A stretch of DNA of 50,924 nt from Alistipes communis (GTDB lineage Bacteria > Bacillota_I > Bacilli_A > RFN20 > CAG-826), in assembly GCA_963655775.1 (NCBI GenBank), contig CAVKFY010000029.1, forward strand, positions 13,813 to 64,736, written 5' to 3'. Position 1 is the first letter of the stretch, and each line of letters begins with the position of its first letter. This document shows, in pieces, positions 6,696-35,644 of the stretch. Made by a program: the position numbers and the translations under genes. The notes below the pieces were generated by a model. That model saw only the letters and a program-made list of their open reading frames with translations, had not been told where the DNA came from and searched no databases.

Positions 6696-6738
6696 TTAAA
6701 ACTCATTAATTAATTTAGCGTTAATTATACAAATGTAA

Positions 6739-6765
6739 TGAGGGGGAGGAAATCTCTCCCCCTCA
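6739..6765 (+). terminator. GC-rich stem-loop between the lipoprotein gene and the ABC genes (partial terminator or stabiliser)
   Basis: TGAGGGGGAG-gaaatct-CTCCCCCTCA: perfect 10-bp stem, 7-nt loop. Followed by cTTTGGAGG (the RBS of the next gene) rather than a long U-run. Confidence 0.4.
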
Positions 6766-6781
6766 CTTTGGAGGATTCAAT

Positions 6782-9126: not shown

Positions 9127-9127
9127 T

Positions 9128-10051: not shown

Positions 10052-10054
10052 ATT

Positions 10055-19997: not shown

Positions 19998-20210
19998 ATT
20001 GGTTTTCCATAATTTCCTCTTCGGCAAGAAGAAAAATCCATAATTCAATAATTCAACTGCAAAACCGCCTTATTTTCTTTTCATCATTCTTTTCTAGCCG
20101 CAGCCATTTATTGGATTTTATTAACATTTTGCCATTTAACGGCTCTTACAATATCACTCACGTTCACTTGTGTTTTAACAATATTTTTTAACCCACTTAA
20201 AAAACTACTA

Positions 20211-20224
20211 GGAAAGCGCTTCCA
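20211..20224. promoter_or_regulatory. cre-like / LacI-family-type palindromic site upstream of the GPH operon
   Basis: GGAAAGCGCTTCCA fits the CcpA cre consensus TGWAANCGNTNWCA at most constrained positions (central AAGCGCTT palindrome). Lies 57 bp upstream of the ATG at 20281. Confidence 0.3.
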
Positions 20225-20280
20225 AAAGTATTATTATGTTTTAGAAGGAACGTTTCATTTTTACGAAACGGTGCAAATAT

Positions 20281-21783
20281 ATGGCAGAAGAAAAAACTAC
20301 TGGGGTGGAGAACCAACGTTCTTACATTTCTCAAACATCAGGTCTACAAGGAAAAGACTACATCGGCTATGCGTTAGGAGATTTCGCTGGATGCCTTTGC
20401 TTTTCTACAGTAACAACAATCCTACAAAAATATTACACAGACATTTTGGGATTAACCCCATTATTCATCATGATCATGTTTATCCTCGCCCGTGTGTGGG
20501 ATGCGATAAACGATCCTATCATGGGACGTATTGTTGATATTCGTCGTCCAGGAAAGGATGGACGTTACCGTGTATGGATGAAGTGGGTTGCAATACCTCT
20601 TGCCATCGCCACAGTCTTAATGTTCTTGCCATGGCCAGATCTTGCTAACAAGATGGGACAAGTTGGCATTTCTATTTATGCGGCTGTTACCTATGTTCTC
20701 TTTGGTATGATCTATACCGTTCACCAAATTCCTTACGGATCGCTTGCTTCAGTCGTTACAACAGATGCAAAAGAAAGAAACAAATTATCAGTCTTCCGTT
20801 CTGCTGGTGCAGCCTTAGGCTCAATTCCTGTTCTTATCATTACATTATTCTATTCAAAGAAAGTTACCGATGCAGATGGCAATACCGTTAGCAAGGTTCA
20901 ATATCTTCCTATCATTATTGGTGTAACTGTTATGGCTGTTGCCGCTTGTATCTTGCTCTTTGTCGCTTACAAGAACAACAAAGAAAGAGTTGTTGCCACA
21001 AACGTTGAACACAAGAAAGGCGAAACAGTTACGATTGCAAAAACATTATTAAAGAATCGTAGCTTTGTTGCAGTTTGCCTTACTGGTCTTCTTCTCTTAG
21101 CAGGGCAAATGTTCACCCAATCCTTCTATACATACTTATTTAACGATTTATTCGGAGCAAACTGGATGAACCTTGCTTCACAAGCTTGCTCTTATGGACC
21201 AATGGTCATCTTAATGCTCTTTGCTGGTAAATTAGTTCGTAAATACGGGAAGAAAGAATTATGTGCTTTAGGTGGCATTGTCGCGGCCGTTCCTAACTTC
21301 ATCTTAATCTTTCTTAAGGATGCTATCATCCAATTCCCGGTTATCTTCCTTGTTTTCTGCTTAATTAGCGGTATTGGACTTTCTATCATCACTCTAGAAA
21401 TTTGGGCTCTTGCAACAGATGCAATCGATGACGTTGAAGTTAAGACTGGTGTCCGTAATGATGGCTCCGCATATTCCATCTTCATGTTCTTCCGTAAACT
21501 TGGACAAGTTCTTGCTGCTGTTTGTGTTAACGGCGCTCTTATGGGAATGGGATATATCCCTGGCTCAGACGCTGTTCAATCACAAAGCACACTTGTTGCA
21601 GAATACTATATGGCCACCGCAATTCCAGCCGCACTCTTCCTTGGAATGGGCTTAGTATTATTCTTCCTCTATGGTTTAAATAAGAAAAAGACAGAAGAAC
21701 TACAAGTCGAAAAAGAAGCGTTGCTTGCCAAACAAGTTGCCAATAACGAAATCAGCATTGGTGCAGACCAAAGTGCAAACTAA
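20281..21783 (+). CDS. Glycoside-pentoside-hexuronide (GPH):cation symporter family transporter (YihO/MelB-like)
   Basis: 500 aa, about 12 TM segments. GPH signature region WDAINDPIMGRIVDIRR. Confidence 0.8.
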   Translation: MAEEKTTGVENQRSYISQTSGLQGKDYIGYALGDFAGCLCFSTVTTILQKYYTDILGLTPLFIMIMFILARVWDAINDPIMGRIVDIRRPGKDGRYRVWMKWVAIPLAIATVLMFLPWPDLANKMGQVGISIYAAVTYVLFGMIYTVHQIPYGSLASVVTTDAKERNKLSVFRSAGAALGSIPVLIITLFYSKKVTDADGNTVSKVQYLPIIIGVTVMAVAACILLFVAYKNNKERVVATNVEHKKGETVTIAKTLLKNRSFVAVCLTGLLLLAGQMFTQSFYTYLFNDLFGANWMNLASQACSYGPMVILMLFAGKLVRKYGKKELCALGGIVAAVPNFILIFLKDAIIQFPVIFLVFCLISGIGLSIITLEIWALATDAIDDVEVKTGVRNDGSAYSIFMFFRKLGQVLAAVCVNGALMGMGYIPGSDAVQSQSTLVAEYYMATAIPAALFLGMGLVLFFLYGLNKKKTEELQVEKEALLAKQVANNEISIGADQSAN

Positions 21784-21784
21784 A

Positions 21785-23104
21785 ATGGTATCGATTAATT
21801 CATCATTAGGACTTATTAAAGGCGTAGAAGAGGAGAACTCCTATGCCTTTTTGGGCATTCCATATGCCAAAGCAGAAAGGTTTTCCTATGCCAAAGAAAT
21901 AGATAATCTTGGCGAAAGTTTTGATGCAACACATTTTGGAGATGCCTGTATTCAAAAAAGATGTTGGTATGCTCACCTGGAGGTTCCTGAGAGGATGTTT
22001 TATCACAAGGAATTTAGACAAGGGCTTGAATTCAAATATTCTGAAGATTGTTTGAATTTAAATATCTATACGCCAAAAGAAAAAGGCAAATATCCAGTTA
22101 TAGTTTTTATTCATGGCGGAGGATTTGATTCTGGGGCGAATTCTGAGAGCGCTTTCGATGGAGATGCTTTAGCAAAAAGAGGAATTGTCACTGTCTTTAT
22201 CCAGTATCGTGTTGGAGTTTTTGGCTATTTCACTCACGAAGATTTAACAAAAGAATTTGGTCATGAAGGCAATTTTGGCTTTGATGATCAAATAACATCT
22301 CTAAAATGGGTTAAGAAACATATAAGTGATTTTAATGGCGATCCAGATAATGTGACAATTATGGGACAAAGTGCTGGTGCAATGTCCATTCAATGTATCT
22401 TGCTTTCAAAGAAATGTGATGGCTTATATAACAAAGCAATCATGATGTCTGGGGGAGGAAAATTCCCATCAATGGCTACACCAAAACCAGTAGAAGAAAG
22501 AAGAGAATATTGGCTTGATGTCATGAAAGAATGTGGTTGTTCATCACTAGATGAATTCAAAAAACTTGATGCAAAGAAAATTTTCGACGCGTTAGAAATA
22601 GTTAAGCCAAGAAGAAAAGACAACCAAATATCCACAATGACAATGGTTGATCATTATTACTTAGAAAAATCACAAGAAGAATTGTTTGAAAAGAAACTAA
22701 ATGTTCCTACAATAATTGGTTTTACTAATAACGATATGTACACGTTAATTCTTGCTATCATGGCTCTTTCTTATGCAAAGAAGAATAACGCATATTGTTA
22801 TTATTTCGATGTAGATGCAAAAGGAGACAACAACAAAGCCTTCCATTCTTCTGATCTCCGCTACGTTTTTGGAACATTAAAAGAATCATGGAGACCATAT
22901 GATAAGAAAGATGAAGAGATTTCTGAATCGATGATGGATTACATTGCAAACTTTGCAAAAACTTCAAATCCAAATGGCAATAATCTTCCTGTTTGGGAGA
23001 AAAAGAATGGAGAGGCTCTCCATATCTCTTCAAAAGGAATTAAAATGGGTCGTCCAAATAAATGGAAACTATTTAAAAATACGTTCCTAGGAGACCCTAA
23101 ATGA
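21785..23104 (+). CDS. Type-B carboxylesterase (para-nitrobenzyl esterase-like), cytoplasmic
   Basis: Start re-set to the ATG at 21785, 1 nt after the transporter stop. FLGIPYA, oxyanion hole IHGGGF, nucleophile elbow GQSAGA. No signal peptide. Confidence 0.85.
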   Translation: MVSINSSLGLIKGVEEENSYAFLGIPYAKAERFSYAKEIDNLGESFDATHFGDACIQKRCWYAHLEVPERMFYHKEFRQGLEFKYSEDCLNLNIYTPKEKGKYPVIVFIHGGGFDSGANSESAFDGDALAKRGIVTVFIQYRVGVFGYFTHEDLTKEFGHEGNFGFDDQITSLKWVKKHISDFNGDPDNVTIMGQSAGAMSIQCILLSKKCDGLYNKAIMMSGGGKFPSMATPKPVEERREYWLDVMKECGCSSLDEFKKLDAKKIFDALEIVKPRRKDNQISTMTMVDHYYLEKSQEELFEKKLNVPTIIGFTNNDMYTLILAIMALSYAKKNNAYCYYFDVDAKGDNNKAFHSSDLRYVFGTLKESWRPYDKKDEEISESMMDYIANFAKTSNPNGNNLPVWEKKNGEALHISSKGIKMGRPNKWKLFKNTFLGDPK

Positions 23105-25293
23105 AATACCAACATCGATTCATCCTTAAAGAAAAAACACCAACAAGCAGGCTTTATTATTCTGATGGCAAATACGTCCAGTTAGATTTCTTTAAGCATA
23201 TCCTCCGTGTCGCAGTATATGAAAATAAAGATAATCTTTTTCCTACCTTTTCCATTTGTCCAGGTACATCCTCAATGCCTAAAAAAGGAAGAGACCGTCT
23301 TTCAAATGAAGGATTAGAAGAAATAAAAGAAGAAAAAGATAACGAATTTGTAATTGATGATGTAAGAATCACTCTCGATTTAGATAACTTTGCTCTTCAT
23401 TACTTCAAAGATAATAAGAAATTCTTTTCTGATAGAGAAATTATTGCTTACAACCTCGAAGGAGAAATGGGCAAAGGAAGTTACCATTACTTATCTAGAG
23501 AAAAGGATGAACATATTTATGGTTTAGGAGACAAGACTGGACCAGTAAATAAGAATCTATGTTCTTTTAAATTAGAGACATTTGATGCGTTAGGATTCAA
23601 TGCAAATAAGAGCGACCCTCTTTATAAACAAATCCCTTTCTATATTTGCAAGAATTCCGTTGGAAGCTATGGCATTTTCTATGATACATATTCGAATGGA
23701 GAAATAAATTTTGGTCGCGAACATAACAATTACTATGAACCATACAAATATTGTCATTCTGAAGAAGAATCACTTGTTTATTATGTCATCTTTGGAGATG
23801 TTGAAGAGATTATAGAAAGATTCACCTATCTTACTGGCAAATCGTTCTTGCCTCCAAAATGGAGTTTTAAATATTGCGGTTCAACAATGGCTTATACCGA
23901 TTCTCCTAATCCAATAAAATCGTTTGAAGAATTTAAAAACAAATGCAATGAGTATAACATCGATTGTGGTGGATTCTATTTATCTAGCGGCTACACCCAG
24001 ATAGGAGATAAACGTTGCGTTTTCCATTGGAATCGTGATAAATTTCCAAATCCTAAGGGTTTTGCCGATGATTTTTTGAAAATTGGAATTAATTTCTTGC
24101 CAAATATTAAACCTGCGTTTTTAACGACCCATCCTTTATATGATTACATTAAAGAACATGGTTGGTTTTTGCATTACAAAGATGGCTCTCCATATGTTTT
24201 CCCTTTCTGGGGTGGTATGGGAAGCTATCTAGATTTTACGAACGAAGAAGCATACGATTTCTGGAGCAAATGTGTTAAAGAAAATCTTGTTGACCTTGGC
24301 TATATGTCCATTTGGAATGATAACAATGAATATGACATCCATGATGAAGGAGTCTTAGCGAATGGCTTTGGCCATCCAATACAAGCCAAGCTTATTAGGC
24401 CCCTTTTTTCTCTTTTAATGATTGCTTCATCTAATGCGGCAGTAGACAAAACCAAACGCCATATGGCTGTCACTAGATCTGCAGCCGCAGGTTTTCAAAG
24501 AATCGCAGAAACCTGGACGGGAGATAACAATACCTCCTTTGAGGATTTCCGTGGTAACCACAAAATGGCTATGACATCTGCATTAACTGGCTTTACCTTT
24601 ATTGGACAAGACATAGGTGGGTTTGCTGGAGAAAAACCGAGTGAAGAATTGTTCCTACGTTGGATTGCATACGGAATTTTCACCCCAAGATTTACTCTAC
24701 ATTCATGGAATCCAGATGGCTCATCAACGATGCCTTGGTTATATCCAGAAGTTAAGGATAAAGTCGTAAATCTTTTTGAACTAAGAAAGACTCTTTTACC
24801 ATATCTCTATTCTGAAGCAATGAATGCAGTGGAAACCTACCATCCAATGATCTACCCTGTTTTCTTGAAATATCCTAACTATGATGAAGAGAGTGATCTT
24901 TTCTTCTGTGGAAATAATATTTTAAGTGCACCTATTTTCGATGAAGGAGCAAAAGAAGCAGCTGTAAATCTTCCAGACGGACATTGGTATCTAGGTGAAA
25001 AACGTGTTTCGGGAAAATTGAAAATTCAAAATAACCCTGGTGATTTGCCTGTGTTTTTCGTAAAAGAAGGATCTGTTATCCCTCTATTTAAAGAAAACAA
25101 GACAATCTTTAACATTTATCCATTAGAAAAGGGAGAATTCTCATATCGTTTTTATGAAGACGATTCTTCTTTAGAAAACCCATATCGCTTAATAAAAGTC
25201 ACCTGTAACGAAAAAGAAGTCATCGTTGAAGGAATTCCTAACGAAGAAATTAAGCTCGTTGATTTTAAAAATAGAACGCTTAAGGCCATATAA
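23101..25293 (+). CDS. GH31 alpha-glycosidase
   Basis: 730 aa. Nucleophile region SIWNDNNEY, acid/base region TWTGDNNTSF and GQDIGGF. ATGA overlap with the esterase gene. Confidence 0.85.
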   Translation: MKYQHRFILKEKTPTSRLYYSDGKYVQLDFFKHILRVAVYENKDNLFPTFSICPGTSSMPKKGRDRLSNEGLEEIKEEKDNEFVIDDVRITLDLDNFALHYFKDNKKFFSDREIIAYNLEGEMGKGSYHYLSREKDEHIYGLGDKTGPVNKNLCSFKLETFDALGFNANKSDPLYKQIPFYICKNSVGSYGIFYDTYSNGEINFGREHNNYYEPYKYCHSEEESLVYYVIFGDVEEIIERFTYLTGKSFLPPKWSFKYCGSTMAYTDSPNPIKSFEEFKNKCNEYNIDCGGFYLSSGYTQIGDKRCVFHWNRDKFPNPKGFADDFLKIGINFLPNIKPAFLTTHPLYDYIKEHGWFLHYKDGSPYVFPFWGGMGSYLDFTNEEAYDFWSKCVKENLVDLGYMSIWNDNNEYDIHDEGVLANGFGHPIQAKLIRPLFSLLMIASSNAAVDKTKRHMAVTRSAAAGFQRIAETWTGDNNTSFEDFRGNHKMAMTSALTGFTFIGQDIGGFAGEKPSEELFLRWIAYGIFTPRFTLHSWNPDGSSTMPWLYPEVKDKVVNLFELRKTLLPYLYSEAMNAVETYHPMIYPVFLKYPNYDEESDLFFCGNNILSAPIFDEGAKEAAVNLPDGHWYLGEKRVSGKLKIQNNPGDLPVFFVKEGSVIPLFKENKTIFNIYPLEKGEFSYRFYEDDSSLENPYRLIKVTCNEKEVIVEGIPNEEIKLVDFKNRTLKAI

Positions 25294-25294
25294 A

Positions 25295-25318
25295 AAACGC
25301 CAAATCGAATTGGCGTTT
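25295..25318. terminator. Bidirectional intrinsic terminator between convergent operons
   Basis: AAACGCCAA-atcgaa-TTGGCGTTT: 9-bp stem, flanked by A-run and T-run. Confidence 0.6.
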
Positions 25319-25327
25319 AGATTTTAA

Positions 25328-26302
25328 TTACTTGCTTTCGTTATATGTTTTTATGAACGCGCCTATACAGCTCTTTTTCTCGCTAAATGTCGCATAGTCT
25401 TCATATAGACAAATTTTTGTTAAGTCGAAGTTTTGTTCTATTGAACGTAACTCTTTTTCTAACTTACGAATTACTTCTTCTGAGGTTAAGAGTTCGCCAG
25501 AGAGGATAATACTTTGTAAGGAAAGAAGAGAGTTTGCATTACATAAGGCAAACGACAAAACATGGATCACTTTGTTTAACAACTCTTCGTTTGATGTAAT
25601 AAGCTTCGTTCCTTCTTTTTCTTCTAAATCTTTACCTAGAATTGCCGAATAAGAAATAGTATCTTCAACAGTTTTATCTTGGTAATATGTATGCCCTAAT
25701 TCTGAAGAATATCCTAAAGGTTTGCCATTAACGTATATTGATGATCCAACGCCAGGTCCATATTTAACGAGCAAGAAATTCTTCTCCTCTGGATGATTTT
25801 CCGCATAGATGTTTGCTAAGCAATTAACGTTGTTAATGATGTAATAGGGAAGATTCAAAGAAACGATATCTTCTAATAACTTTGGATAGCGTTCTTGCAT
25901 GCTTTCGATAGATGAATCTCCTCTTACCGTAACACCAATAGAAATAACGTGTTCAGGACATTCGTTAGAGAAATCTTTAAACGATATTCTTGAAGAGTCA
26001 TCTTGCTTAAGGATGTTGCCTGCGAAATCCATTTGATAAAAATATTCATGATGACGTCTGATATCAATTCCAAGGAAGGAACCATACTCCGCATTTAAAG
26101 AAAGGGTTAATTCCTTTCTTCCAACTTTTTGGGTATTTTCCTTTCTCTTTTCGGAGATCATTTTTTCTTCTAAAAGGGGCTTAAGAGCAAGCGTTAAAGC
26201 AGCATTGGTCAAAGATAGAGTGTTCGCTAAAATAGACCTAGAGCTTTCTTTCTCTACAAATAGAATACGAAGGATTGATTTTTGAGTCTCTGTTAAATTC
26301 AT
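25328..26302 (-). CDS. ROK-like transcriptional regulator (wHTH plus sugar-kinase-fold sensor), lacking the Cys-rich zinc motif
   Basis: Start re-set to MNLTETQKSILRIL... at 26302, 4 nt after the upstream stop. wHTH, then the ROK-like VKYGPGVGSSIYVNGKPLGYSSELGH. No CxCGxxGC after GH. Confidence 0.65.
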   Translation of the reverse strand: MNLTETQKSILRILFVEKESSRSILANTLSLTNAALTLALKPLLEEKMISEKRKENTQKVGRKELTLSLNAEYGSFLGIDIRRHHEYFYQMDFAGNILKQDDSSRISFKDFSNECPEHVISIGVTVRGDSSIESMQERYPKLLEDIVSLNLPYYIINNVNCLANIYAENHPEEKNFLLVKYGPGVGSSIYVNGKPLGYSSELGHTYYQDKTVEDTISYSAILGKDLEEKEGTKLITSNEELLNKVIHVLSFALCNANSLLSLQSIILSGELLTSEEVIRKLEKELRSIEQNFDLTKICLYEDYATFSEKKSCIGAFIKTYNESK

Positions 26303-26306
26303 ATTT

Positions 26307-27023
26307 TTATACCAATAGTGTAACACCAGAAATAAGGAGAAGAACACACGTTATCTTCATAAATAGATTCTTTGATAGCTTAGGAGCAATTAATGAACCA
26401 ATAATTAGGGAGATTACGGTTACTCCTGCGCCTATCCCAAATAAGATCCAAACATTTGAATTGAACATTCCTTCAACTACTTGAGTCGTAAACATCATTG
26501 AGTTAAGAATCACCCAAAGAAGAGATAATGTCGATCTGAATTTGTTCTTATCTTTCAATTCATGGAGACCATATATAACAACAAAAGGTCCACCAGAAAC
26601 AAAGAGTTTATGCATGATTCCTCCTAGGAAAAGGAAGATAATCATCAACCATTTAGGAAGATTTACTTTTTCAAAGTCAATAAAGAAGAAAGCAATGCTA
26701 ATAAGGATAATCAATGCAGCATAGACATATAGAATTATCTTATGGTTGATAGGAATTAATTCAACCGCATATCCTGTTCCAAAACCTGCGCCAACAGTAA
26801 TAAGAATAATCAAAAAATGTTTCCAATCGATATCTTTTATGTGGCGAATAACAATATAAACGCTAACGAAAAGAGCAACTAGATTTAGCACTGGTTTTGC
26901 AACATCTTCACCAACCAGTTTTAAAGATAAGGGCATTGCTAGAACCGTTCCAGCAAAGCCCGTTATCGTTTGGATGATATTGCTAATGAAAATTATGAGT
27001 ATAAATAGAACGTCTTCAACCAT
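26307..27023 (-). CDS. TauE/SafE-family (DUF81) anion exporter-like membrane protein
   Basis: 238 aa, 7-8 TM segments, two-fold internal architecture with G-rich TM motifs (ITGFAGTVLAMPL; GGIMHKLFVSGGP). Its start ATG overlaps the upstream stop (TAATG). Confidence 0.6.
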   Translation of the reverse strand: MVEDVLFILIIFISNIIQTITGFAGTVLAMPLSLKLVGEDVAKPVLNLVALFVSVYIVIRHIKDIDWKHFLIILITVGAGFGTGYAVELIPINHKIILYVYAALIILISIAFFFIDFEKVNLPKWLMIIFLFLGGIMHKLFVSGGPFVVIYGLHELKDKNKFRSTLSLLWVILNSMMFTTQVVEGMFNSNVWILFGIGAGVTVISLIIGSLIAPKLSKNLFMKITCVLLLISGVTLLV

Positions 27024-27643
27024 TAGAAATCAACTTTTGTGTTTTCTCCGACTATACCAACGTATGCACCAAGAGAGGCTTGGTTACTGTCTTTATGTGC
27101 TAACAACCATTTATTAACTTTCCAAAGCTTTTTATCCTTTGGAGCCTCTTCTAGATCCATGTTTGTTTCATCGCCAAGGACAATCACACATCTAAATCCA
27201 TCTTCACTAAGTTTGCATGGAGAGAAATGTAAGGTATATGGTCTTAAGATCACTGCTTGTCCTTTTTTGAGTAAGAAAGCCTTTAGATCTTTAGAATCAA
27301 GGATGCCGTCTTTGATGTCGGTTTGTAAGCCGAGTAGAAGAACTAAATCATCTCCAGCGATATCTACCTCAGGACAAGTGTGATATTCCATGCAATTCAA
27401 AAGAGAGTTGTAGCCATTGCAATATCCAACCTCGATATCAGCTAAACCATAAACGCTTTCTTTTATTTCTTTAACGCCAGCTAATTTTTCCATCTCTTCA
27501 TCCTTACGGACATAGAGGTTTTTGCCTTTTTCAGGCATTTTAGCCTTTGAACGGAGATAAGTAACGAGTTCTTCTGTTGGAATATCAATTAATTCGCCAT
27601 AAGGCAAGAATTCAGGATCAGTAACACTTATGAGTTTCATCAA
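27023..27643 (-). CDS. DUF4867-like small cupin-type protein (candidate sulfosugar isomerase/accessory protein)
   Basis: 206 aa soluble protein. Assignment is by recollection of the DUF4867 family and its co-occurrence in sulfo-TAL clusters. Overlaps the upstream gene by ~26 nt. Confidence 0.5.
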   Translation of the reverse strand: MMKLISVTDPEFLPYGELIDIPTEELVTYLRSKAKMPEKGKNLYVRKDEEMEKLAGVKEIKESVYGLADIEVGYCNGYNSLLNCMEYHTCPEVDIAGDDLVLLLGLQTDIKDGILDSKDLKAFLLKKGQAVILRPYTLHFSPCKLSEDGFRCVIVLGDETNMDLEEAPKDKKLWKVNKWLLAHKDSNQASLGAYVGIVGENTKVDF

Positions 27644-28949
27644 GAATCTCCCAATTCATTAATTTAGCTAGATAACGCATAGCTTTCTTATATTGGACGT
27701 AGCCCATAATAACGTGGTGAGCAACGCCAGTGTATGTAACCGTATCAACAACTTCATTGATTGGTCTATCAAAGACTACTTTCGCATATGTTCCAGATAA
27801 ATCCTTTGTCATTTCAAAGGCTTCGCCTTCTTCATAATAGATTCTTGTCTTTCCTCTTGCCGTATCAATACGTAAGATAGACATCTTTCCTGGCTTTAAG
27901 ACAAAGTCTGCGGTAACGCCTTTTCCACCAGCGAAATATGTTTCAAGCGAACGGTTGCAACGTCCATCCCAAAGGTTACATGGAGCAACTCCATCATGCC
28001 AAAGAAGAGCATAGTTTTCTTGATAGTTAACTTGAGAAAGATCGGCCATAAATGGTGTTTCTTCTCCTGCTGCACGGACTGCGACCATGCTTAATGCCGC
28101 TTCGATATCGCCTTCACAAGCAAGTAACATTCCTCTTGATTGAAGAACCGACATCATCGCACACGGTGAAACGCCATAGTTTTTAGCAAACTCTGGCCAA
28201 CAACGAATTGCTACGACATCAAGGCCTTTTTCTTTCATGAATTTAGAACAAACGACCACTAAACGGGAAACTTGTCTAACTTGATAATCATTAAGTTTCT
28301 TGCAATCGAAGGTTTCTCTAAGATTCTTTTCTTCAACATCAATTTCTTCTTCGCTTGCTTCTCCACCAAAGAAATCGCTTAATTCATAATGGCTAATAAG
28401 AATTCCAAGTTCTTTGTAGAGATGAAGCTCATCTACTCCAACGTTATAGAATCCTTGGGCATGGAAACCGATTAAACCAACGTTTGAGTTTTCTAATGCA
28501 ACCTTCATCTTGATTGCCTTGACCCAATCGTGATCAATGTCATCTCCAACATAAACGATATAGTCATCAACTCCGCCTTTATAGAGGTTTGAGGCGTTTA
28601 AATTAACCCCGCAAACTGCATTGAGTCTAATCTTTCCTCCATCGTATGGAAGTTCGTTATAACCTTGTAAAAGGAATGGGCGCTTGACAATATCGTGAAG
28701 AATTAAAGCAAGTCCACCTAAGTGGAAGGTAGCAGAGACTACAACGACCGCATCAACGTGTTTTTCGACGAAATATTCGCCTGCTTTCTTTGCTTCGGAA
28801 TGTTCGATAACCATTTCTGGGTAATAAACCCAATCAATGGAAGTATCTTCCATGACTTTCTTACATCTTTCTTGATAAAGCTTAAAGGCTGTTTCGTAGT
28901 CAAAAGTCTTTCTGACTAGGCAAACTAACCCAATAATTGGTTTTCTCAT
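27618..28949 (-). CDS. L-fucose/L-arabinose isomerase-like aldose-ketose isomerase family protein
   Basis: 443 aa with the FucI-like N-terminal Rossmann-like region (IGLVCLVRKTFD...AVVVVSATFHLGG) and a C-terminal barrel. Confidence 0.6.
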   Translation of the reverse strand: MRKPIIGLVCLVRKTFDYETAFKLYQERCKKVMEDTSIDWVYYPEMVIEHSEAKKAGEYFVEKHVDAVVVVSATFHLGGLALILHDIVKRPFLLQGYNELPYDGGKIRLNAVCGVNLNASNLYKGGVDDYIVYVGDDIDHDWVKAIKMKVALENSNVGLIGFHAQGFYNVGVDELHLYKELGILISHYELSDFFGGEASEEEIDVEEKNLRETFDCKKLNDYQVRQVSRLVVVCSKFMKEKGLDVVAIRCWPEFAKNYGVSPCAMMSVLQSRGMLLACEGDIEAALSMVAVRAAGEETPFMADLSQVNYQENYALLWHDGVAPCNLWDGRCNRSLETYFAGGKGVTADFVLKPGKMSILRIDTARGKTRIYYEEGEAFEMTKDLSGTYAKVVFDRPINEVVDTVTYTGVAHHVIMGYVQYKKAMRYLAKLMNWEILDETHKCY

Positions 28950-28950
28950 A

Positions 28951-29787
28951 TTATTTGACCTCGTTAACGATTTTATATGAAGCAGAGAAGTCTTCTTTAG
29001 CTAAGCCTTCTGCCATGGCTTTTTCGTATATGCCAACAACGCGTTCTAATGTTGGGCATTCTTTATTTACGTCTTTTGCCATTTCAAGAGCAAAATGAAC
29101 GTCTTTATTCATGTTTTCAACGGAGAATGCAGTTGGATAAGTATTGGAGATGATGTTCTTTGCCTTGGTATCAAGATAGAAACATTGTCCTCCGCCATAG
29201 CTTATAGCAGTAACGACTTCTTCTTGGTTTAAGCCTACTTCTTTTGCTAAGCCAAGAATTTCATTAACGCCATTTTGGATTTCACCAACCAAGGCGTTAT
29301 GAATAACTTTCATCTTTAATCCTGCGCCATGATCACCCATATAGATGATGTTCTTACCCATGCATTCAAGGATTGGCTTTACTTTTTCATAGACTTCTTT
29401 ATTACCGCCTACGTAAATGCCAAGTTCTCCCTTAACGGCTGCTGGTTGAGATTTAACAACCGGACAGTCAAGGATTTCAACTCCGCTTCCTTCTAATTCT
29501 TTTGCAACTTTTTGATTTGTTGCGGGGAAAATAGTGGACATATCAATCCAGATTTGTCCTGGGCGGAAGTATTTCTTTAATTCGGCAAAGAGCGAAAGCA
29601 TATGCTCATTCTTTGGAACCATGGAAATAATAACATCAGCGAATTTAGCACATTCTTCATAGGAAGAAGCAAATGGGAAAGACGTGTCTTTTTTGAAAAT
29701 ATCGTAGCCAATTAAGTCGTACTTTTTGGCAACGTTTGTAGCCATTGGCATTCCCATGATGCCAAGACCAATAAAGGCGACTTTCAT
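28951..29787 (-). CDS. Beta-hydroxyacid dehydrogenase family reductase, YihU (sulfolactaldehyde reductase)-like
   Basis: Start re-set to MKVAFIGLGIMG (NAD-binding GxGxxG). Catalytic Lys region GAGLKMKVIHN. Substrate loop DCPVVKSQ aligns with E. coli YihU DVPVGRTS. Confidence 0.8.
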   Translation of the reverse strand: MKVAFIGLGIMGMPMATNVAKKYDLIGYDIFKKDTSFPFASSYEECAKFADVIISMVPKNEHMLSLFAELKKYFRPGQIWIDMSTIFPATNQKVAKELEGSGVEILDCPVVKSQPAAVKGELGIYVGGNKEVYEKVKPILECMGKNIIYMGDHGAGLKMKVIHNALVGEIQNGVNEILGLAKEVGLNQEEVVTAISYGGGQCFYLDTKAKNIISNTYPTAFSVENMNKDVHFALEMAKDVNKECPTLERVVGIYEKAMAEGLAKEDFSASYKIVNEVK

Positions 29788-29788
29788 C

Positions 29789-30469
29789 TTAGTTTCCTTT
29801 CGTATGATCCCAAGCATCTTGGAACACGCCTAAGCCATAAGTGGTAAATGGATGATTGAAACTATCTTCGTAGACGGCTAATCCTGCTGTGACAATATCT
29901 GCACCAAGTTCTGCTGCATCAGCAATTTGTTTACCATTTCTAACGGCTGCGACAATGATTTCAGTCTTATAGCCTTTTTCTTTATAGATGGCAACAAGTT
30001 GAGACATATATGGATATGTGTCTTCGCCGTTATTTTCTTTCCAACCGACGAATGGTGAGACGAATTTAGCGCCAATTCTTCCTGCTTGGATGGCTTGGGA
30101 AGGAGAGAAGACAAGAGTAACGTTAGTTCTTACTCCTTCTTTTTCTAATTGATATGCGGCTTTGACACCTTCTGTCGTGCAAGGAATTTTAATGACAAAG
30201 TTTGGAGATAATTTAGCAATCTTCTTTGCTTCGGTAATCATTTCTTCTGCGGTTGCTAAATGTGGATTGATTTCGACGGAGACTGGGAATTTATCCATTC
30301 CTTCGAGATCGTTTTCTTTTAACCAATTGGCAATATCTGTGATTGCAACTAAGAATGGCTTTCCTGAGGCCATGATATGTTTTGGGTTTGTTGTAACACC
30401 GTCGATTTTGTAGTTTTTGTAAGCGAAGTCGATTTCGTTTAATTTTGCTGAATCAAGAAAATATTTCAT
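29789..30469 (-). CDS. Short-type transaldolase / fructose-6-phosphate aldolase family (candidate 6-deoxy-6-sulfofructose transaldolase)
   Basis: 226 aa. MKYFLDSA, GVTTNP, Schiff-base Lys in FVIKIP, NVTLVFS, SPFVGW. Strong RBS AGGAGG. Confidence 0.85.
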   Translation of the reverse strand: MKYFLDSAKLNEIDFAYKNYKIDGVTTNPKHIMASGKPFLVAITDIANWLKENDLEGMDKFPVSVEINPHLATAEEMITEAKKIAKLSPNFVIKIPCTTEGVKAAYQLEKEGVRTNVTLVFSPSQAIQAGRIGAKFVSPFVGWKENNGEDTYPYMSQLVAIYKEKGYKTEIIVAAVRNGKQIADAAELGADIVTAGLAVYEDSFNHPFTTYGLGVFQDAWDHTKGN

Positions 30470-30470
30470 T

Positions 30471-32450
30471 TTAATTTCCTCCTTTTTCTTGTTTTAAGCT
30501 TGCGAATAAATCTTTGAATTTAGAATCCTTTTTATAGAAGGCAATAGGTAAGCCGACAGGTGAATCTATTTCTCCTTCTCCAGAAGGTATTTCTTTGTTT
30601 GTGAAGAATTGAATCCATTCCCCTTTTGGTAAATAGTAATGATGTTTTGTTTCATTTGGTCTAATGACTGGTGAAACAAGAATGTCCTCGCCAAATAGGT
30701 ATTCCTTTTTGTTTGTATATGCTTCCTTTTCATCGTAATGGAAGAATAGTGGTCTAATCATTGGAGTGTTGTTTTTGTAATATTCTTCATAGAGATGTTT
30801 ACGATATGGGGCGAGATCTACATAGGATTTTGTGTTTTTTACAAATTCATCATATGTATTTGGATCATCATATTGGACATTATTTTTTGGTTGGTTTCCT
30901 TCGTGAGTACGATAGACTGGGCTAAAGATATTCATCTCTGACCAACGATTAAACAATTCTGCGTTTCTCTTCATTGGATATAGAGCAGTGATTGTTGTAT
31001 ATCCTCCAATATCCGAATGGATGACACCTGCGCCAGAACATGCTAAAGATAGGCATGCTGGGATAACACTTCCAAGACCATATTCATCTGAGAAGTCGAC
31101 GTGTTGGTCGCCATTCCACATTGAGTGAGTGAATTGGAAAGTATGACCATAAGCAGCACGGGAGAAGAAGAAACATTCATCAAGTTTTCCTTCTTCGACA
31201 ACTGCATCATAATTACATTTTGCCCACATTGTAGGCCAACGATTATGAAGCTTCTCGCTTTCTCCACCATAACATACTGAGTCTGTTGGGAGATACTCAC
31301 CAAAGTCTGCCATCCAACCAGAAAGACCATATTCAATCATGTTCTTTTTGATAATTTCCATATACCAGTTACGAGCGGTTGGATTTGTTAAATCAACGAT
31401 GCCTGCATTAAATGTTGTTGATTTAATGTGATAGACTGAACCATCTTTATGACGGATAAGGAAGCCTTTCTTCTTTGCTTCGTTATACATTGGCGCATCT
31501 TCTTTTAAGAAGGTGTTGATGTATCCTAGGAAACGGACTCCTTCGGAATTTAGCTGTTTGATAATTTCTTTAAGATTTGGGTAAAGTTTTTCATCTGCTT
31601 CCCAATTCCAGTAAACTTGATAACCGAAACTCGTGACGACATTTCCGCACCAGTCTTGGCACCAAATACCAGCAACCTTTAAGCCTTTCTTTTTTGCTTC
31701 TTCGTATTTTTTAAGAAGAACTTCACTTCCACCCTGTACAGCAAGAATGACACCATCATTCACCCAGGAAGGAACTCTTGGTTGGAGACCTACAAGTTTA
31801 GAAATATCTTGTGACAACTCTAAGAGAGAATCTGCACAAAGCAACGATATTGATTGAGGAATTTGTCTGAATTTAATAAGCAATTCATCTTTCTTGAACG
31901 ATAAGAATCCATATGTATCTTCATGACAATAGAAAGCGTATCCTTTCGAAGACATGAAAGATGGAGTGGAGCAATAAGTTTGATGATCTTTATACGGCGC
32001 TTCATAATCTGGGTTTGCACCATGGAGACGTTCTCTTAATTGCTTCTTAACAATCTTCATGACTTGTTGGTGTTCGCTTACCCAAATTGGAACGTCTTTT
32101 CCTTTTAAATCAAGGGTTGAGTATTGCTCACCACATCCATATATATATTCATCAGGGAATGTTTTGAAACGCAATGTAAAACGGTTATATCCAGGATCAA
32201 CGTGGAAATGGAATTTAATCCATGGATCCTTATCGACGATTATTTCCGCTTGAACTTTTCCATCGGAGAAAATATAACGGTTGCCATCTTGGAAAGAGAA
32301 AGTAAGTTTTCTTCTATCAAAGATATTGTCTCTTGTTTTAAAAGAGCCTCTCTTCATTTTGTATTTCGCTTTTCCTTTGCCGATAGTTAAATAACACTCG
32401 CCGTTTGTTAATTGGTTTAAAAAGTAATTATAAAGGTCTTCTTTTTTCAT
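30471..32450 (-). CDS. GH31 glycosidase of the YihQ (sulfoquinovosidase) subfamily, non-canonical sulfonate pocket
   Basis: 659 aa, collinear with E. coli YihQ: AVQGG, CQDW, SFGYQVYWNW, nucleophile GWMADFGEYLPTD, acid/base MWNGDQHVDF, HSDIGGYTT, RTHEGN. Confidence 0.85.
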   Translation of the reverse strand: MKKEDLYNYFLNQLTNGECYLTIGKGKAKYKMKRGSFKTRDNIFDRRKLTFSFQDGNRYIFSDGKVQAEIIVDKDPWIKFHFHVDPGYNRFTLRFKTFPDEYIYGCGEQYSTLDLKGKDVPIWVSEHQQVMKIVKKQLRERLHGANPDYEAPYKDHQTYCSTPSFMSSKGYAFYCHEDTYGFLSFKKDELLIKFRQIPQSISLLCADSLLELSQDISKLVGLQPRVPSWVNDGVILAVQGGSEVLLKKYEEAKKKGLKVAGIWCQDWCGNVVTSFGYQVYWNWEADEKLYPNLKEIIKQLNSEGVRFLGYINTFLKEDAPMYNEAKKKGFLIRHKDGSVYHIKSTTFNAGIVDLTNPTARNWYMEIIKKNMIEYGLSGWMADFGEYLPTDSVCYGGESEKLHNRWPTMWAKCNYDAVVEEGKLDECFFFSRAAYGHTFQFTHSMWNGDQHVDFSDEYGLGSVIPACLSLACSGAGVIHSDIGGYTTITALYPMKRNAELFNRWSEMNIFSPVYRTHEGNQPKNNVQYDDPNTYDEFVKNTKSYVDLAPYRKHLYEEYYKNNTPMIRPLFFHYDEKEAYTNKKEYLFGEDILVSPVIRPNETKHHYYLPKGEWIQFFTNKEIPSGEGEIDSPVGLPIAFYKKDSKFKDLFASLKQEKGGN

Positions 32451-32662
32451 TCGAATCCTCTCTAGCTGATCGCTATTATTTAAGTGACTTAAAAATTATA
32501 AGATGTGATTCAAATAATATCAATATCTAAACATTAAGTTGTGGTTGTTTTTATAGAAAATGGTTATTTTTAACCAACATTTAAATATAAAACGTGAAAT
32601 GGTCAATAAAAGTGATAAGATTTGTGAGTTATCAAAATGATAAGCATTAGGGAGGGATAAAT

Positions 32663-35644
32663 ATGTTAGAAGTCAAACATTTAAAAAGAATTTATAAATT
32701 AAAAAATGCTGACCCTGTGTATGCATTAAATGACGTATCAATTAAGTTTCCTAAGAAAGGCCTTGTTTTTATATTAGGTAAATCTGGTTCTGGCAAATCC
32801 ACATTGCTCAATGTTATTGGTGGACTTGATGTTGCAGATGAAGGAGAAATCATCATCGATGGAAAATCCAGTAAGGAATTTAGCAAAGGAGAATTAGATT
32901 CCTATAGAAATACTTATTTGGGTTTCATCTTCCAAGAATACAACATTCTTTCTGACTATACGGTCAAAGAGAATATCGCTCTTGCCTTGCAATTGCAGCA
33001 TAAGAAGGCGACTGATGAAATTATCGATTCCATTCTTAAGGAAGTGGATCTTGAAGGTTTTGGTAAGAGAAAGCCAAACGAGCTCTCTGGCGGTCAGAAA
33101 CAAAGAGTCGCAATTGCTAGAGCCTTAGTCAAAGAGCCAAAGATCATCTTCGGTGATGAGCCAACAGGTGCCTTAGATAGCAATACCGGCAAGCAAGTCT
33201 TTGAGACATTGAAGAAACTATCCAAAGACAAGCTTGTTGTCGTTGTCTCTCACGATAGAGAATTTGCAGAATCTTTTGGCGATCGTGTCATTGAATTAAA
33301 AGATGGCGTCATCATCTCTGACGTAGAAAAGAATTTGATGGAAATGGTCACTCCATCAAAAGGTCTTTCTGTTCTCGGTGATAATGTTATTCGTATTAGC
33401 AAAGATCATCCATTAACAAAAGATGATTTGCCAGTTCTTAACGAGGCAATAAGCAAGGCCAAAGATGATATCTACTTTGTTGCAGATCAAAGCGTTAATA
33501 AAGCCATTCGTCAAGCCGCAAAGATCAATGAGAATGGTGAAAGAACAGAATTTTGCAAAACCGATGAGAGCAAAATCAAAGAAAAGAACGAAGAATTCAA
33601 AACCATTAAGAGTAAATATTCTCTTGGCCAAGCGTTTAGGATGGGTGCAAAATCCTTACGCGTTAAGCCTTTCCGTTTGGTGATGACAATTATTCTTTCC
33701 ACAGTTTCCTTCTCTTTATTTGGTGCAAGTTTAACTTTGTCGATGTTCAATAAAGAAAATGCTGTTATTTCCACGATGGAAAGAAATGAAATCACTAGCC
33801 TCAAGGCAGGTTTATCTGAAGCAGGAACTGGTTACGGATTTAGCAAAGAAAGAATCGCTCAAATCGAATCTGGCGGTGCGAAAGTCTATCCTATTTATGG
33901 CTATACTTCCGAAATCTCAATGAATGCTGGAGAATCCAAGACAACAAACGATTTCTATCATGCAAGAAAATGGGACGGAATAATAGACGTTACGGATAAT
34001 CTTTTGGGTGATTTCGGTTTTAGCGTTGCATATGGTGAGATGCCTAAGAACGAATACGAATGTGCTATATCTTTATATTCTTATTACACATACAAAGACT
34101 TAGGATATTACATTAATAAGAGTCTTATCGATAAGACTTATGTAAGCCCTGAAAATGTTACTCCAGAAACAATTATTGGTAGAACTATCGACGTTAGCGA
34201 TACTAGAGAATCTTTTATCAGTGGAGGAGCAACAACCACAGCTTATAAGATCACAGGCATTATTGATACTAAGCTTCCTAGCAAATTCGATAAATATCGT
34301 AATGGGACCACAAAATTAACCGATGATGATCCTGATTATAAAGAAGTGGCTAATTTAGTAGGTGGCCAAACGATACATTCTCAGTTGTTTGCGAAAAGAC
34401 ATTCTGATGAAGATTCCAGCATTATTGTCACAACACGTTATAGTGAAAATATGCCAAATATCCTTGCCTATATGCCGAACGTTAAGAATGTCTATCTCTT
34501 TGATAAGAGCAAGAAAGAATTAGGTAATGGGGAATGCATGATGACATTCTTGGATATCTATAATTATCTTCTTGTTTACGAAAATGCAGATACTGCCACA
34601 GATTTCAAAGAAAAGGCAAAAACTATTACTGATAGAAGAAGTGAAGAAGTTGATGAGTTTATCGATAACAACTACGAAGCCTTCTATGAAAAATATCACA
34701 CACTGTATGAATTCCATGACAAAATGGATGAAGCTGCAGCAAGCGTTGAAGTAAAGAAAGAACTTTGTAAGAATTACTTTACTTCTAAGAGTGCTGAAAA
34801 TACGGAAGAATACATCAACTTCTATTCCAACTTCCTTAAAGAAGAAATTGCCATTCTCGATACGATGAAAAAGGTGCCTAATTTCTCCTTGGATAGCAGT
34901 TTAAAAATCGGAACTGGAGATAACGTTTCTCAATCTGTTTCATTAAAGGTCGCAGGTATTGATTTAGATTCCTTCTATTTCTCTAGCTTAATCAAAATTT
35001 CAAAAAACTACGCTGAAACCCTTGTGGATCAATTAAAATCCAACAATGCATATGCTTTAGGCAATAATAATATGGCATTTATTGCTTTCAAAAATGCACG
35101 TAATTCTTTTGTTAAATCGTATTTAACTCAAAGGGATGCATATCAAAGTACAGACGAACATGCAAAAGGTGATTGGTGCTTATCTTTATATAATTCAACC
35201 ATCAGCCAAGTTGAAGCGATTGCCACTATAGTTCTTGTTTTAACGCATGTCTTTGTTTGGATTGGTGTTGCATTAGCCGTTTTCTCGATTCTTCTCTTCT
35301 ATAATTTCATCTCCGTTTCTATTAACAATAAGAAGAGAGAGATTGGTATCCTTAGAGCGGTTGGTGCCAAACGTAGCGATGTCTTTAAGATCTTCTATTC
35401 TGAAGCATTCATTATCGCCTTTGTTAACTTCATCTTATCCACGGTTGCGGTATTCGTTATTTCTAATTCCGTTAACGCATCGGCAATAAAGAATGATGGA
35501 TTTGACTTTAATTTGATGAATCCAAACTTCTTAGTTGTCTTGGCCTTGTTTGGAATTTCTCTTGGTGCAAGTATTATTTCATCCTTGTTACCGGTTTGGA
35601 AAATTGCTAGCAAGAAACCAATTGACGCAATACAAAATAGATAA
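32663..35644 (+). CDS. MacB/FtsX-type ABC transporter, ATPase and permease fused in one 993-aa polypeptide
   Basis: N-terminal ATPase (GKSGSGKSTLL, LSGGQKQRVAIARA, IIFGDEPTGALD). One TM at ~aa 340, an extracytoplasmic domain of about 480 aa, and a C-terminal FtsX-like 3-TM bundle (ILRAVGAKRSDVFKIF...). Confidence 0.8.
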   Translation: MLEVKHLKRIYKLKNADPVYALNDVSIKFPKKGLVFILGKSGSGKSTLLNVIGGLDVADEGEIIIDGKSSKEFSKGELDSYRNTYLGFIFQEYNILSDYTVKENIALALQLQHKKATDEIIDSILKEVDLEGFGKRKPNELSGGQKQRVAIARALVKEPKIIFGDEPTGALDSNTGKQVFETLKKLSKDKLVVVVSHDREFAESFGDRVIELKDGVIISDVEKNLMEMVTPSKGLSVLGDNVIRISKDHPLTKDDLPVLNEAISKAKDDIYFVADQSVNKAIRQAAKINENGERTEFCKTDESKIKEKNEEFKTIKSKYSLGQAFRMGAKSLRVKPFRLVMTIILSTVSFSLFGASLTLSMFNKENAVISTMERNEITSLKAGLSEAGTGYGFSKERIAQIESGGAKVYPIYGYTSEISMNAGESKTTNDFYHARKWDGIIDVTDNLLGDFGFSVAYGEMPKNEYECAISLYSYYTYKDLGYYINKSLIDKTYVSPENVTPETIIGRTIDVSDTRESFISGGATTTAYKITGIIDTKLPSKFDKYRNGTTKLTDDDPDYKEVANLVGGQTIHSQLFAKRHSDEDSSIIVTTRYSENMPNILAYMPNVKNVYLFDKSKKELGNGECMMTFLDIYNYLLVYENADTATDFKEKAKTITDRRSEEVDEFIDNNYEAFYEKYHTLYEFHDKMDEAAASVEVKKELCKNYFTSKSAENTEEYINFYSNFLKEEIAILDTMKKVPNFSLDSSLKIGTGDNVSQSVSLKVAGIDLDSFYFSSLIKISKNYAETLVDQLKSNNAYALGNNNMAFIAFKNARNSFVKSYLTQRDAYQSTDEHAKGDWCLSLYNSTISQVEAIATIVLVLTHVFVWIGVALAVFSILLFYNFISVSINNKKREIGILRAVGAKRSDVFKIFYSEAFIIAFVNFILSTVAVFVISNSVNASAIKNDGFDFNLMNPNFLVVLALFGISLGASIISSLLPVWKIASKKPIDAIQNR

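Follow-up and report, generated by a model that had tools for sequence, protein, structure and literature searches.

Sulfoquinovose (SQ) is made on a gigatonne scale, and its breakdown in the gut supplies 2,3-dihydroxypropanesulfonate (DHPS) to sulfite-respiring bacteria, which leads to hydrogen sulfide. The closest systems to the locus considered here are the sulfo-transaldolase (sulfo-TAL) clusters of Bacillus aryabhattai and B. megaterium (SftATXGI..., SqvA-D) and of Eubacterium rectale (EUBREC_2585-2596). We have analyzed a seven-gene operon in a 50,924-nt stretch of contig CAVKFY010000029.1 (assembly GCA_963655775.1), referred to below as the window, and find in and around it the part list of the Bacillus and E. 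rectale clusters: a GPH/MFS importer, a GH31 glycosidase, a FucI-like isomerase, a short transaldolase, a DUF4867 protein and a TauE-type exporter, together with a reductase, as in the E. rectale cluster (PMC7491151, PMC11968277). Based on homology and gene context, we consider it quite likely that the operon, which comes from an uncultured gut bacterium of the Bacilli, forms a reductive sulfo-TAL (sulfo-SFT) regulon. The initial annotation of the window had proposed the same route and had noted that it is of a described type. We agree that the pathway itself is not new, and this operon architecture is widespread. The new elements are a clade of arginine-less, Gln/Thr-type glycosidases, a second isomerase lineage and a putative ROK repressor with its candidate operator.

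Operon anatomy and the probable transaldolase route

The sulfo-TAL reading is supported by the transaldolase, which groups with the solved sulfofructose (SF) transaldolase of B. megaterium (BmSF-TAL). The window protein scores 155 bits against the Pfam TAL_FSA model and matches PDB 8bc3 (8bc2-4) over residues 1–223 with an E-value of 6.3e-91, compared with 6.5e-44 for the next-best PDB match, a classical transaldolase. It is about two-thirds identical to BmSF-TAL, as read by eye from the alignment, and 56–65% identical to the transaldolases of Lachnospiraceae, Oscillospiraceae and Treponema loci. The catalytic Asp-Lys-Glu set of the SF transaldolase clade is present as D6, K94 and E66, along with W143 (in SPFVGW) and R177; K94 corresponds to B. 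megaterium Lys89, the Schiff-base lysine (PMC12890257). The motifs SPF[VIL]GWKE and AA[VIL]R are kept in every transaldolase-bearing locus but one (L063, which has ASIRES). Classical short transaldolases have a phosphate-binding Arg (SPFVGR) where the SF transaldolase motif has Trp, and the SF transaldolase structure is said to contain an 'Arg-Trp-Arg triad'. Lys30 (TTNPKH, compared with TTNPRH in B. megaterium) was considered as an atypical sulfonate residue and dropped, because Arg, Lys and Asn all occur at this position across otherwise conserved loci.

The seven genes are co-directional open reading frames (ORFs) on the minus strand, packed without gaps from 25328 to 32450, and the ORF listing confirms the order originally given: GH31, transaldolase, reductase, FucI-like isomerase, DUF4867, TauE and ROK (Table 1). 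Once gene starts had been refined against relatives, the junctions comprised four gaps (1, 1, 1 and 4 nt) and two overlaps (1 and ~23 nt), matching the spacing described for them. Profile searches place every named part in its proposed family. When the larger ORFs of the 51-kb window were scanned with Pfam, no sugar kinase, class I or II aldolase, dehydratase or aldehyde dehydrogenase was detected; the absence of an SF kinase, an SF-phosphate (SFP) aldolase and a dehydratase, also noted in the initial annotation, holds for these ORFs. The part list of that annotation did leave out the importer, a YihO-like GPH symporter encoded nearby that accompanies the operon in a conserved manner. The seven genes form one unit with a strong promoter and a common terminator, and this anatomy is far beyond chance.

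A scan of species-representative genomes yielded 78 related loci (86 in the operator core count below). The order GH31–TAL–RED–ISO–DUF4867–TauE, where TAL, RED and ISO are the transaldolase, reductase and isomerase genes, usually followed by ROK, is found in ~60 of the 78, and the GH31 clade also occurs in sulfo-transketolase (sulfo-TK) clusters; on this comparison the gene set belongs with sulfosugar pathways rather than others. The locus of a common gut Lachnospiraceae protein (157 index blocks) reads GH31–TAL–RED–DUF4867–TauE–ISO–ROK, and an MFS_2 gene is close by. The initial annotation had seen part of the interest of the locus in its taxon and ROK-type regulator; this architecture and the ROK regulator are thus shared beyond the window taxon. 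The taxon itself can be narrowed somewhat. The named relatives of the window GuaA protein are all listed as 'MAG: Bacilli bacterium' (MAG, metagenome-assembled genome; 67–70% identity), and the GH31 has its relatives in MAGs from rumen, deer, goat and horse that bear the labels Bacilli or uncultured Erysipelotrichaceae; an exact look-up of the window GH31 gave no match. These sequences place the organism in an uncultured lineage of Bacilli from the guts of herbivores or other animals.

Two of the smaller genes fit the same setting. The DUF4867 protein matches PDB 9gyy, the cupin of the B. megaterium sft cluster (E 2e-40), and the Glu, His and Glu of its EYHTCPE motif and the His of LHFSPC align with the 2His-2Glu metal site described for that protein (PMC11968277). 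This DUF4867/SftX subgroup is a marker of sulfoglycolytic neighborhoods (PMC11968277). The TauE gene is found at the same operon position in nearly all related loci.

The isomerase and the reductase are more distant from characterized proteins. Our comparison with the characterized Sft and Sqv proteins bears out the transaldolase part of the original assignment; the other two enzymes are not close orthologs of SftI and YihU. The isomerases found beside these GH31 genes fall into two lineages, A and B, that are 24–26% identical to each other. Lineage A contains the Lachnospiraceae and Treponema isomerases, which score 382–415 bits against the SftI model, and the isomerase gene of a Virgibacillus sulfo-Embden–Meyerhof–Parnas type 2 (sulfo-EMP2) cluster. 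Lineage B contains the window protein and those of an Oscillospiraceae sft locus (53% identical to the window) and an Athalassotoga-like locus (39%), and recurs in other sulfoglycolytic clusters. A sequence search of the PDB found no relatives of the window isomerase.

The reductase ORF spans 28951-29817, and its true start is likely at 29787, as relatives begin with MKIGFIGLG. The protein is 28% identical to E. coli YihU and scores 134 bits against the YihU model (cutoff 348). Its catalytic Lys is kept and the NAD-type Asp that ends strand β2 is invariant. A PVVKS motif replaces the PVGRT of YihU, placing Lys at the position of YihU Arg123. We considered this Lys as evidence for an anion pocket and downgraded it, because YihU binds the sulfonate through Asn174, Ser178 and only the backbone amide of Arg123, and the two side-chain ligands are not kept in the window enzyme (PMC8006165). 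The operon position suggests that this enzyme acts as a sulfolactaldehyde reductase yielding DHPS.

The pocket of the YihQ-like glycosidase

The first gene of the operon encodes a GH31 enzyme of the YihQ subfamily. It scores 695 bits against NCBIfam PRK10426 (YihQ; cutoff 553), is 41% identical to E. coli YihQ over 652 aa and matches PDB 5aed with an E-value of 1e-156. D382 and D448 align with the YihQ nucleophile D405 and acid/base D472, and W281 (YihQ W304), Y484 (Y508), H516 (H537) and the equivalents of Q262 and Q288 are all kept. The sulfonate pocket of YihQ-type enzymes consists of Arg301, Trp304 and, through a water molecule, Tyr508 (PMC12780224, PMC8006165, bioRxiv 10.64898/2026.02.11.705467). 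Residue mapping shows that the sulfonate-binding R301 is replaced by Q278 (codon 31617-31619; TSFGYQVYWNW compared with TSFGKRVMWNW) and that G368 is replaced by T345 (codon 31416-31418). The initial annotation had separately flagged atypical active-site residues in the operon.

This substitution is one of several points that weigh against assigning the operon to SQ breakdown. Sulfoquinovosidases are defined by a Q/E-RWY motif in which Arg301 touches the sulfonate (PMC12780224, PMC8006165), and each of the four YihQ-type enzymes with solved structures, E. rectale SftG (6pnr) among them, has Arg; the window GH31 and all of its close relatives have Gln. The searchable literature shows no assayed member of the Gln/Thr clade. 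The isomerase matches SftI, its only NCBIfam match, over its full length (E 6e-52), but with 177 bits against a cutoff of 700, and it is 24–26% identical to SftI-type genes. The reductase has His and Val at the positions of the YihU sulfonate ligands N174 and S178. Finally, rumen microcosms amended with SQ gave isethionate only, with no DHPS or sulfolactate, and 47–64% of the rumen yihQ amplicon variants lay on a long Mollicutes-like branch (PMC13219744). That branch may correspond to the Gln/Thr clade; the amplicon spans only codons of about 401–509 and so does not include residue 301. If the two are the same, these operons would need a glycoside rather than free SQ, or would act otherwise.

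The Gln/Thr combination is not an isolated feature of the window. Gln occupies position 301 in all 120 of the closest homologs of the window GH31 (down to 46% identity), in 75 of 75 full-length GH31s encoded in the related loci, including those of Lachnospiraceae, Oscillospiraceae and Treponema, and in the 120 closest homologs of a Lachnospiraceae representative, cultured Butyrivibrio strains among them (Butyrivibrio sp. VCB2006 and FCS014 have genes of the Gln/Thr type); the 301/368 pair is Gln/Thr in 315 of 315 close relatives examined. In a search of 50%-identity representatives of the wider YihQ subfamily, both states of position 301 are common: Gln301 is accompanied by Thr or Ser at 368 in 66 of 75 sequences and Arg301 by Gly368 in 46 of 55, and Arg is never found with Thr. 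A neighbor-joining tree places the window enzyme in a large, almost purely Gln clade, apart from an Arg clade that holds EcYihQ and the Agrobacterium-type KERWY enzymes, and the Gln/Thr switch recurs in a third, mixed clade. The covariation of the two positions speaks against decay and for a pocket whose residues are coupled and under selection, and the recurrence in the mixed clade indicates more than a single inherited accident. The genomic context of a distant 746-aa protein of the Gln/Thr type (locus L083) was uninformative.

We read Arg/Gly and Gln/Thr as two alternative, selected pocket designs. In the second, the sulfonate would be held without the canonical Arg by Gln278 and Thr345 together with Trp281 and Tyr484, a geometry that we draw from covariation alone. 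YihU provides a precedent for an arginine-free sulfonate pocket, as it uses Asn174, Ser178 and a backbone amide (PMC8006165). Substitutions specific to the Gln/Thr clade are concentrated at YihQ positions 146–163 and 368–369. Within a clade-specific loop, the basic residues K136, R139 and H127 are candidate compensators for the lost Arg, for which we make no claim.

Another account of the missing Arg301 would make the GH31 a relic, either catalytically compromised or no longer acting on sulfonates, in an operon that feeds on free SQ released by other community members. Speciale and colleagues are said to have found in 2016 that mutating Arg301 cripples E. coli YihQ, which would fit such a loss. 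However, the gene is intact and stands first in the operon, all GH31 catalytic residues are conserved, and the residue pair, invariant among the 315 close relatives and covarying in the wider family, carries the signature of selection, not of decay. We regard this explanation as hardly credible.

Genomic context also bears on the substrate. In dozens of species, a Gln/Thr-type GH31 gene opens an sft-type operon, and GH31s of this type are also present in Acholeplasmataceae and related clusters that carry the sulfo-TK gene set. An Arg-type GH31 lies within a sulfo-EMP2 cluster in Virgibacillus; thus, Arg and Gln types are both embedded in sulfoglycolysis. Since the two downstream routes that accompany the Gln/Thr enzymes have only the SQ input in common, an SQ glycoside is the likeliest GH31 substrate, and enzymes of this type probably still act on sulfoquinovosides. 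We do not file the window enzyme as a proven sulfoquinovosidase, because the defining Arg is absent; it is a YihQ-like enzyme that most probably functions as one.

Could the Gln/Thr clusters instead process a different 6-modified or 6-deoxy α-glucoside, such as a quinovoside, through a pathway paralogous to sulfo-TAL? The sugar would be isomerized, split by the transaldolase into fructose-6-phosphate and lactaldehyde or a similar aldehyde, and the aldehyde reduced. Loss of Arg301 throughout the clade, its separation from the EcYihQ clade, a reductase lacking the YihU Asn174 and Ser178, the divergent isomerase lineage and the lack of DHPS in SQ-fed rumen fluid (PMC13219744) would each agree with such a pathway. 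We nevertheless consider it unlikely. The operons conserve a TauE anion exporter, for which a neutral diol would have no need, and the same GH31 clade is found in sulfo-TK clusters alongside sulfoacetate-forming enzymes. The transaldolase is as near to the proven BmSF-TAL (about two-thirds, by eye) as to the other transaldolases that accompany Gln-type enzymes (56–65%), and it retains Trp where the classical enzymes have a phosphate-binding Arg. DUF4867/SftX, in addition, marks sulfoglycolytic clusters (PMC11968277).

Within the SQ reading, the balance of this evidence leaves roughly even, in our judgement, the case that the Q301/T368 clade embodies a second, arginine-free mode of sulfoquinovoside recognition, or a specificity shifted to acylated sulfoquinovosyl glycerols, and that many Firmicutes, Bacilli and Mollicutes-like bacteria of the rumen and gut carry this form. 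The matter has practical weight because yihQ is a survey marker gene and reviews define the enzyme by its Arg-Trp-Tyr sulfonate pocket. A large clade, with members in uncultured Bacilli from the guts of herbivores, in Lachnospiraceae, Oscillospiraceae and Acholeplasmataceae, and in cultured Butyrivibrio strains, breaks this RWY rule and yet sits in textbook sulfoglycolysis operons. If the GH31 is indeed arginine-free in its recognition or shifted in its specificity, the 'RWY' sulfoquinovosidase rule would be incomplete, touching much of the gut and rumen 'yihQ' diversity.

Among the related loci, a group of 'cleanbin' MAG contigs (L001-L034, L048, L057-L060), the nearest of which encode proteins 85–99% identical to those of the window, carries operon copies that are 80–99% identical. 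The organisms named for them contradict one another (among others Faecalibacterium prausnitzii, Alistipes, Bacteroides uniformis and Parasutterella); these names look like mislabelling and were not relied on. Two loci of Acholeplasmataceae type (L080, 1-11956, and L081, 1-11941) combine a Gln/Thr-type GH31 and an MFS_2 gene with an isomerase, a split transketolase, RpiB, CitMHS, an aldehyde dehydrogenase, a two-subunit ADP-forming CoA ligase and two GntR/UTRA regulators. Their gene content indicates a sulfo-TK, sulfoacetate-forming context, with the CitMHS protein likely serving as exporter instead of TauE.

Proposed control and uptake, and neighboring genes

The operon promoter is the best sigma-70-like match within the 13 kb scanned (20000-33000), agreeing at 11 of 12 positions, and lies 45 nt upstream of the GH31 start. 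In an alignment of 37 upstream regions with a mean identity of 51%, the only blocks conserved at 90% or more are the −35 TTG, the −10 TATAA and, as the longest of them, the perfect palindrome TTTAAGT-N-ACTTAAA that directly follows the −10 element. The exact core of this candidate operator, TTAAGTNACTTAA, is present in 33 of 86 loci. Allowing up to two mismatches, it is found upstream of the GH31 gene in ~40 loci, mostly 11–44 nt away, and 27–90 nt upstream of the importer gene in ~20 loci where the importer forms a separate unit or heads the operon. Presence of the site follows that of the regulator: 37 loci have both a ROK gene and the operator, 12 have neither, none has the site alone and five have ROK alone, all five of the latter carrying a different, Cys-containing ROK ortholog. 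These counts are not independent events, because the loci are related. They fit a ROK repressor bound at the palindrome in the operon promoter, and the conserved operator and its repressor offer a handle for finding the inducer. The window has a second, degenerate copy upstream of the importer gene. It is not significant alone, with 1.1 such matches expected by chance, and it is positioned like the better-conserved sites found upstream of importer genes elsewhere.

The regulator combines a ROK domain with an N-terminal DNA-binding winged helix, residues 14–117 giving weak MarR, NagC and AdcR-like matches. It has no zinc-binding CxCGxxGC motif after ExGH; the corresponding segment is ELGHTYYQDKTVEDTISYS, with no Cys, where the Lachnospiraceae ROK (L070) has CSCGRRGC. 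The motif is likewise missing from the ROK regulators of the window clade (ROK genes of L002-L064). At the other end of the operon, a terminator-like hairpin lies between the converging stops of the second GH31 gene (GH31b; 25293) and the ROK gene (25328). Of the two strands, the minus strand shows the clearer T-rich tail (TTTATATGGC; plus strand, AGATTTTAAT), and the hairpin could serve as a terminator common to both convergent units.

Table 1. Coordinates of the operon, its signals and the convergent unit in the window
Feature	Position	Strand	Basis
Degenerate operator copy TTTAACCCACTTAAA	20187..20201	.	~80 nt upstream of importer gene, 2 mismatches
GPH-family (MFS_2) symporter, YihO-like, putative SQ glycoside importer	20281..21783	+	TIGR00792 269 bits, cutoff 231
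Type-B carboxylesterase, no signal peptide	21785..23104	+	Pfam COesterase 312 bits; pNB-esterase-like in PDB
Second GH31 (GH31b), MalA/alpha-glucosidase-like, accessory	23101..25293	+	Pfam GH31 253 bits; below all NCBIfam cutoffs
Terminator-like hairpin AAACGCCAAATCGAATTGGCGTTT	25295..25318	both	9-pair stem (scan)
ROK-family regulator with N-terminal winged helix, putative repressor	25328..26302 (ORF to 26347)	-	Pfam ROK 39 bits, cutoff 22.9
TauE/SafE-family membrane protein, putative DHPS exporter	26307..27023	-	Pfam TauE 70 bits, cutoff 32.6
DUF4867/SftX cupin	27023..27640 (ORF 27023-27643)	-	Pfam 215 bits
FucI-like aldose-ketose isomerase, lineage B, putative SQ to SF isomerase	27618..28949	-	NCBIfam SftI
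NAD-type beta-hydroxyacid dehydrogenase-family reductase, putative sulfolactaldehyde reductase	28951..29787	-	NAD_binding_2 + NAD_binding_11 (Pfam)
Sulfofructose transaldolase, SftT/SqvA type, 226 aa	29789..30469	-	PDB 8bc3, Pfam
YihQ-like GH31, Q/T type, 659 aa, putative sulfoquinovosidase	30471..32450	-	PRK10426, PDB 5aed, residue mapping
Candidate operator, perfect palindrome TTTAAGT-N-ACTTAAA	32479..32493	.	directly downstream of -10
Operon promoter	32495..32523	-	-35 TTGATA (32523-32518), 17-nt spacer, -10 TATAAT (32500-32495)

The convergent unit begins with the importer, which is 26% identical to the E. coli sulfoquinovose transporter YihO (E 2e-47). Most related loci have an importer gene of this kind next to the operon, where it either follows ROK in convergent orientation or stands immediately before the GH31 gene. 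In the window it is followed after 1 nt by a co-transcribed carboxylesterase gene, which overlaps the GH31b gene by 4 nt; the best PDB matches of GH31b are 6jr6 and 2g3m. Beside the operon, 14 other loci have the three-gene importer–esterase–GH31b unit as well, with identities that fall to 62–70%.

Other hydrolases are found in comparable positions. In a Bacilli MAG (L051), the operon itself contains a carboxylesterase gene (8787-9989), placed between those for the importer and the GH31, and a gene for a PETase/PAF-AH-like, lipase-like hydrolase (9942-11312) follows the GH31 gene in an Athalassotoga-like locus (L084). This recurrent link suggests, as a lead, that lyso-sulfolipid may be deacylated after uptake. 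The window esterase is, more speculatively, a candidate acyl-sulfoquinovosylglycerol esterase. To our knowledge, a sulfolipid deacylase has long been missing. If the GH31 proves arginine-free or shifted, the linked cytoplasmic carboxylesterase would be a candidate for that activity. Cytoplasmic alpha/beta-hydrolases recur beside Gln/Thr-type GH31s, each being a candidate sulfolipid or lyso-sulfolipid deacylase.

These hydrolases raise the alternative that the downstream route is true sulfo-TAL and only the GH31 specificity has moved, toward acylated sulfoquinovosyl glycerols or lyso-sulfolipid, the enzyme acting together with the linked esterase. The COesterase gene beside the operon in the window and 14 other loci, its placement within the operon in L051, the hydrolase gene of L084 and the clade-specific substitutions at YihQ positions 146–163 and 368–369 could all be understood in this way. 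Most Gln/Thr loci, however, have no esterase. Where present, the esterase travels with the ordinary alpha-glucosidase-like GH31b and may serve another substrate, and structural data do not place the substituted loop at the aglycone site. On balance such a division of labor seems improbable to us.

We therefore return to the sulfo-TAL reading, for which homology and gene context suggest the following sequence of events. The YihO-like GPH symporter would import an SQ glycoside, probably sulfoquinovosyl glycerol, from which the cytoplasmic esterase may, speculatively, first strip an acyl group. The YihQ-like GH31 would then free SQ and the FucI-like isomerase would convert it to SF. The transaldolase would transfer the C1–C3 unit to glyceraldehyde-3-phosphate, producing fructose-6-phosphate and sulfolactaldehyde; the NADH-type reductase would turn the latter into DHPS, and the TauE protein would export it, with the DUF4867 cupin as a conserved accessory. 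The ROK-type protein would repress the operon at TTTAAGT-N-ACTTAAA until a sugar effector lifts repression, and in related genomes it could act at the same operator before the importer gene, of which the window copy is degenerate.

Several features elsewhere in the window deserve mention. Divergent from the operon promoter region, 32663-35644 encodes a 993-aa fusion of an ABC ATPase and an FtsX-type permease (MacB-like); homologs lie beside the operon only in L003, and the protein is probably unrelated to it. At 14418-16202, a single ORF fuses a HAD/beta-phosphoglucomutase-like domain (residues 2–186) to a MalK-type ABC ATPase (ABC_tran and OB_MalK). The ORF comes right after two genes for GH65 phosphorylases and a pair of ABC permease genes (8209-14421) and is an unusual enzyme–transporter ATPase fusion in an alpha-glucoside phosphorylase locus. 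Three long ORFs of 864, 470 and 446 aa, within 4101-8194 and 38832-40172, have no Pfam match; the 864- and 470-aa ORFs belong to a LacI-regulated glycan locus, beside a GH28-like protein with F5/8 type C domains.

Comparison with known systems

Against the Bacillus and E. rectale clusters, the window differs in four respects. Its GH31 has Gln/Thr in place of Arg301/Gly368, with Arg found in E. rectale SftG (6pnr); its isomerase belongs to lineage B, at 24–26% identity to SftI-type genes; its regulator is a Cys-less ROK protein rather than the GntR regulator of B. aryabhattai (PMC7491151); and, unlike in those clusters, its importer gene stands outside the operon, sharing a convergent unit with the genes for an esterase and a second GH31. 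Compared with the sulfoquinovosidases EcYihQ (5aed), AtSQase (5ohs) and ErSftG (6pnr), the window enzyme has the same domain order and keeps the catalytic Asp pair, Trp304, Tyr508, Gln262, Gln288 and His537, but has Gln301, Thr368 and a changed block at YihQ 146–163, and falls in a separate clade.

For an Acholeplasma sp., a sulfo-TK variant (SqwGH, SqwI, SqwD, SqwKL; Chu et al. 2023) has been described whose enzymes were validated, as two later accounts summarize (PMC11659671, PMC12890257). The Acholeplasmataceae loci with the sulfo-TK gene set resemble the window in their Gln/Thr-type GH31, MFS_2 importer and FucI-like isomerase. They would proceed through a transketolase to sulfoacetate under GntR-type regulators, whereas the window would proceed through a transaldolase to DHPS under ROK. 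With the E. coli sulfo-EMP pathway (yihO-yihW) the window shares a YihO-like importer (26%), a YihQ-like GH31, a YihU-family reductase (28%) and the predicted DHPS end product. It has no YihS-type isomerase, YihV kinase, YihT aldolase or YihR mutarotase, and it has TauE as putative exporter in place of YihP and ROK as putative regulator in place of the DeoR-type CsqR.

Among ROK repressors, the window clade departs from the NagC, Mlc and XylR type in its missing CxCGxxGC motif and in its predicted operator core, TTAAGTNACTTAA. Like those proteins, the window regulator joins a winged helix to a ROK sugar-binding domain and is associated with a palindromic candidate operator, which lies at a catabolic operon's promoter and also, in related genomes, at that of the transporter.

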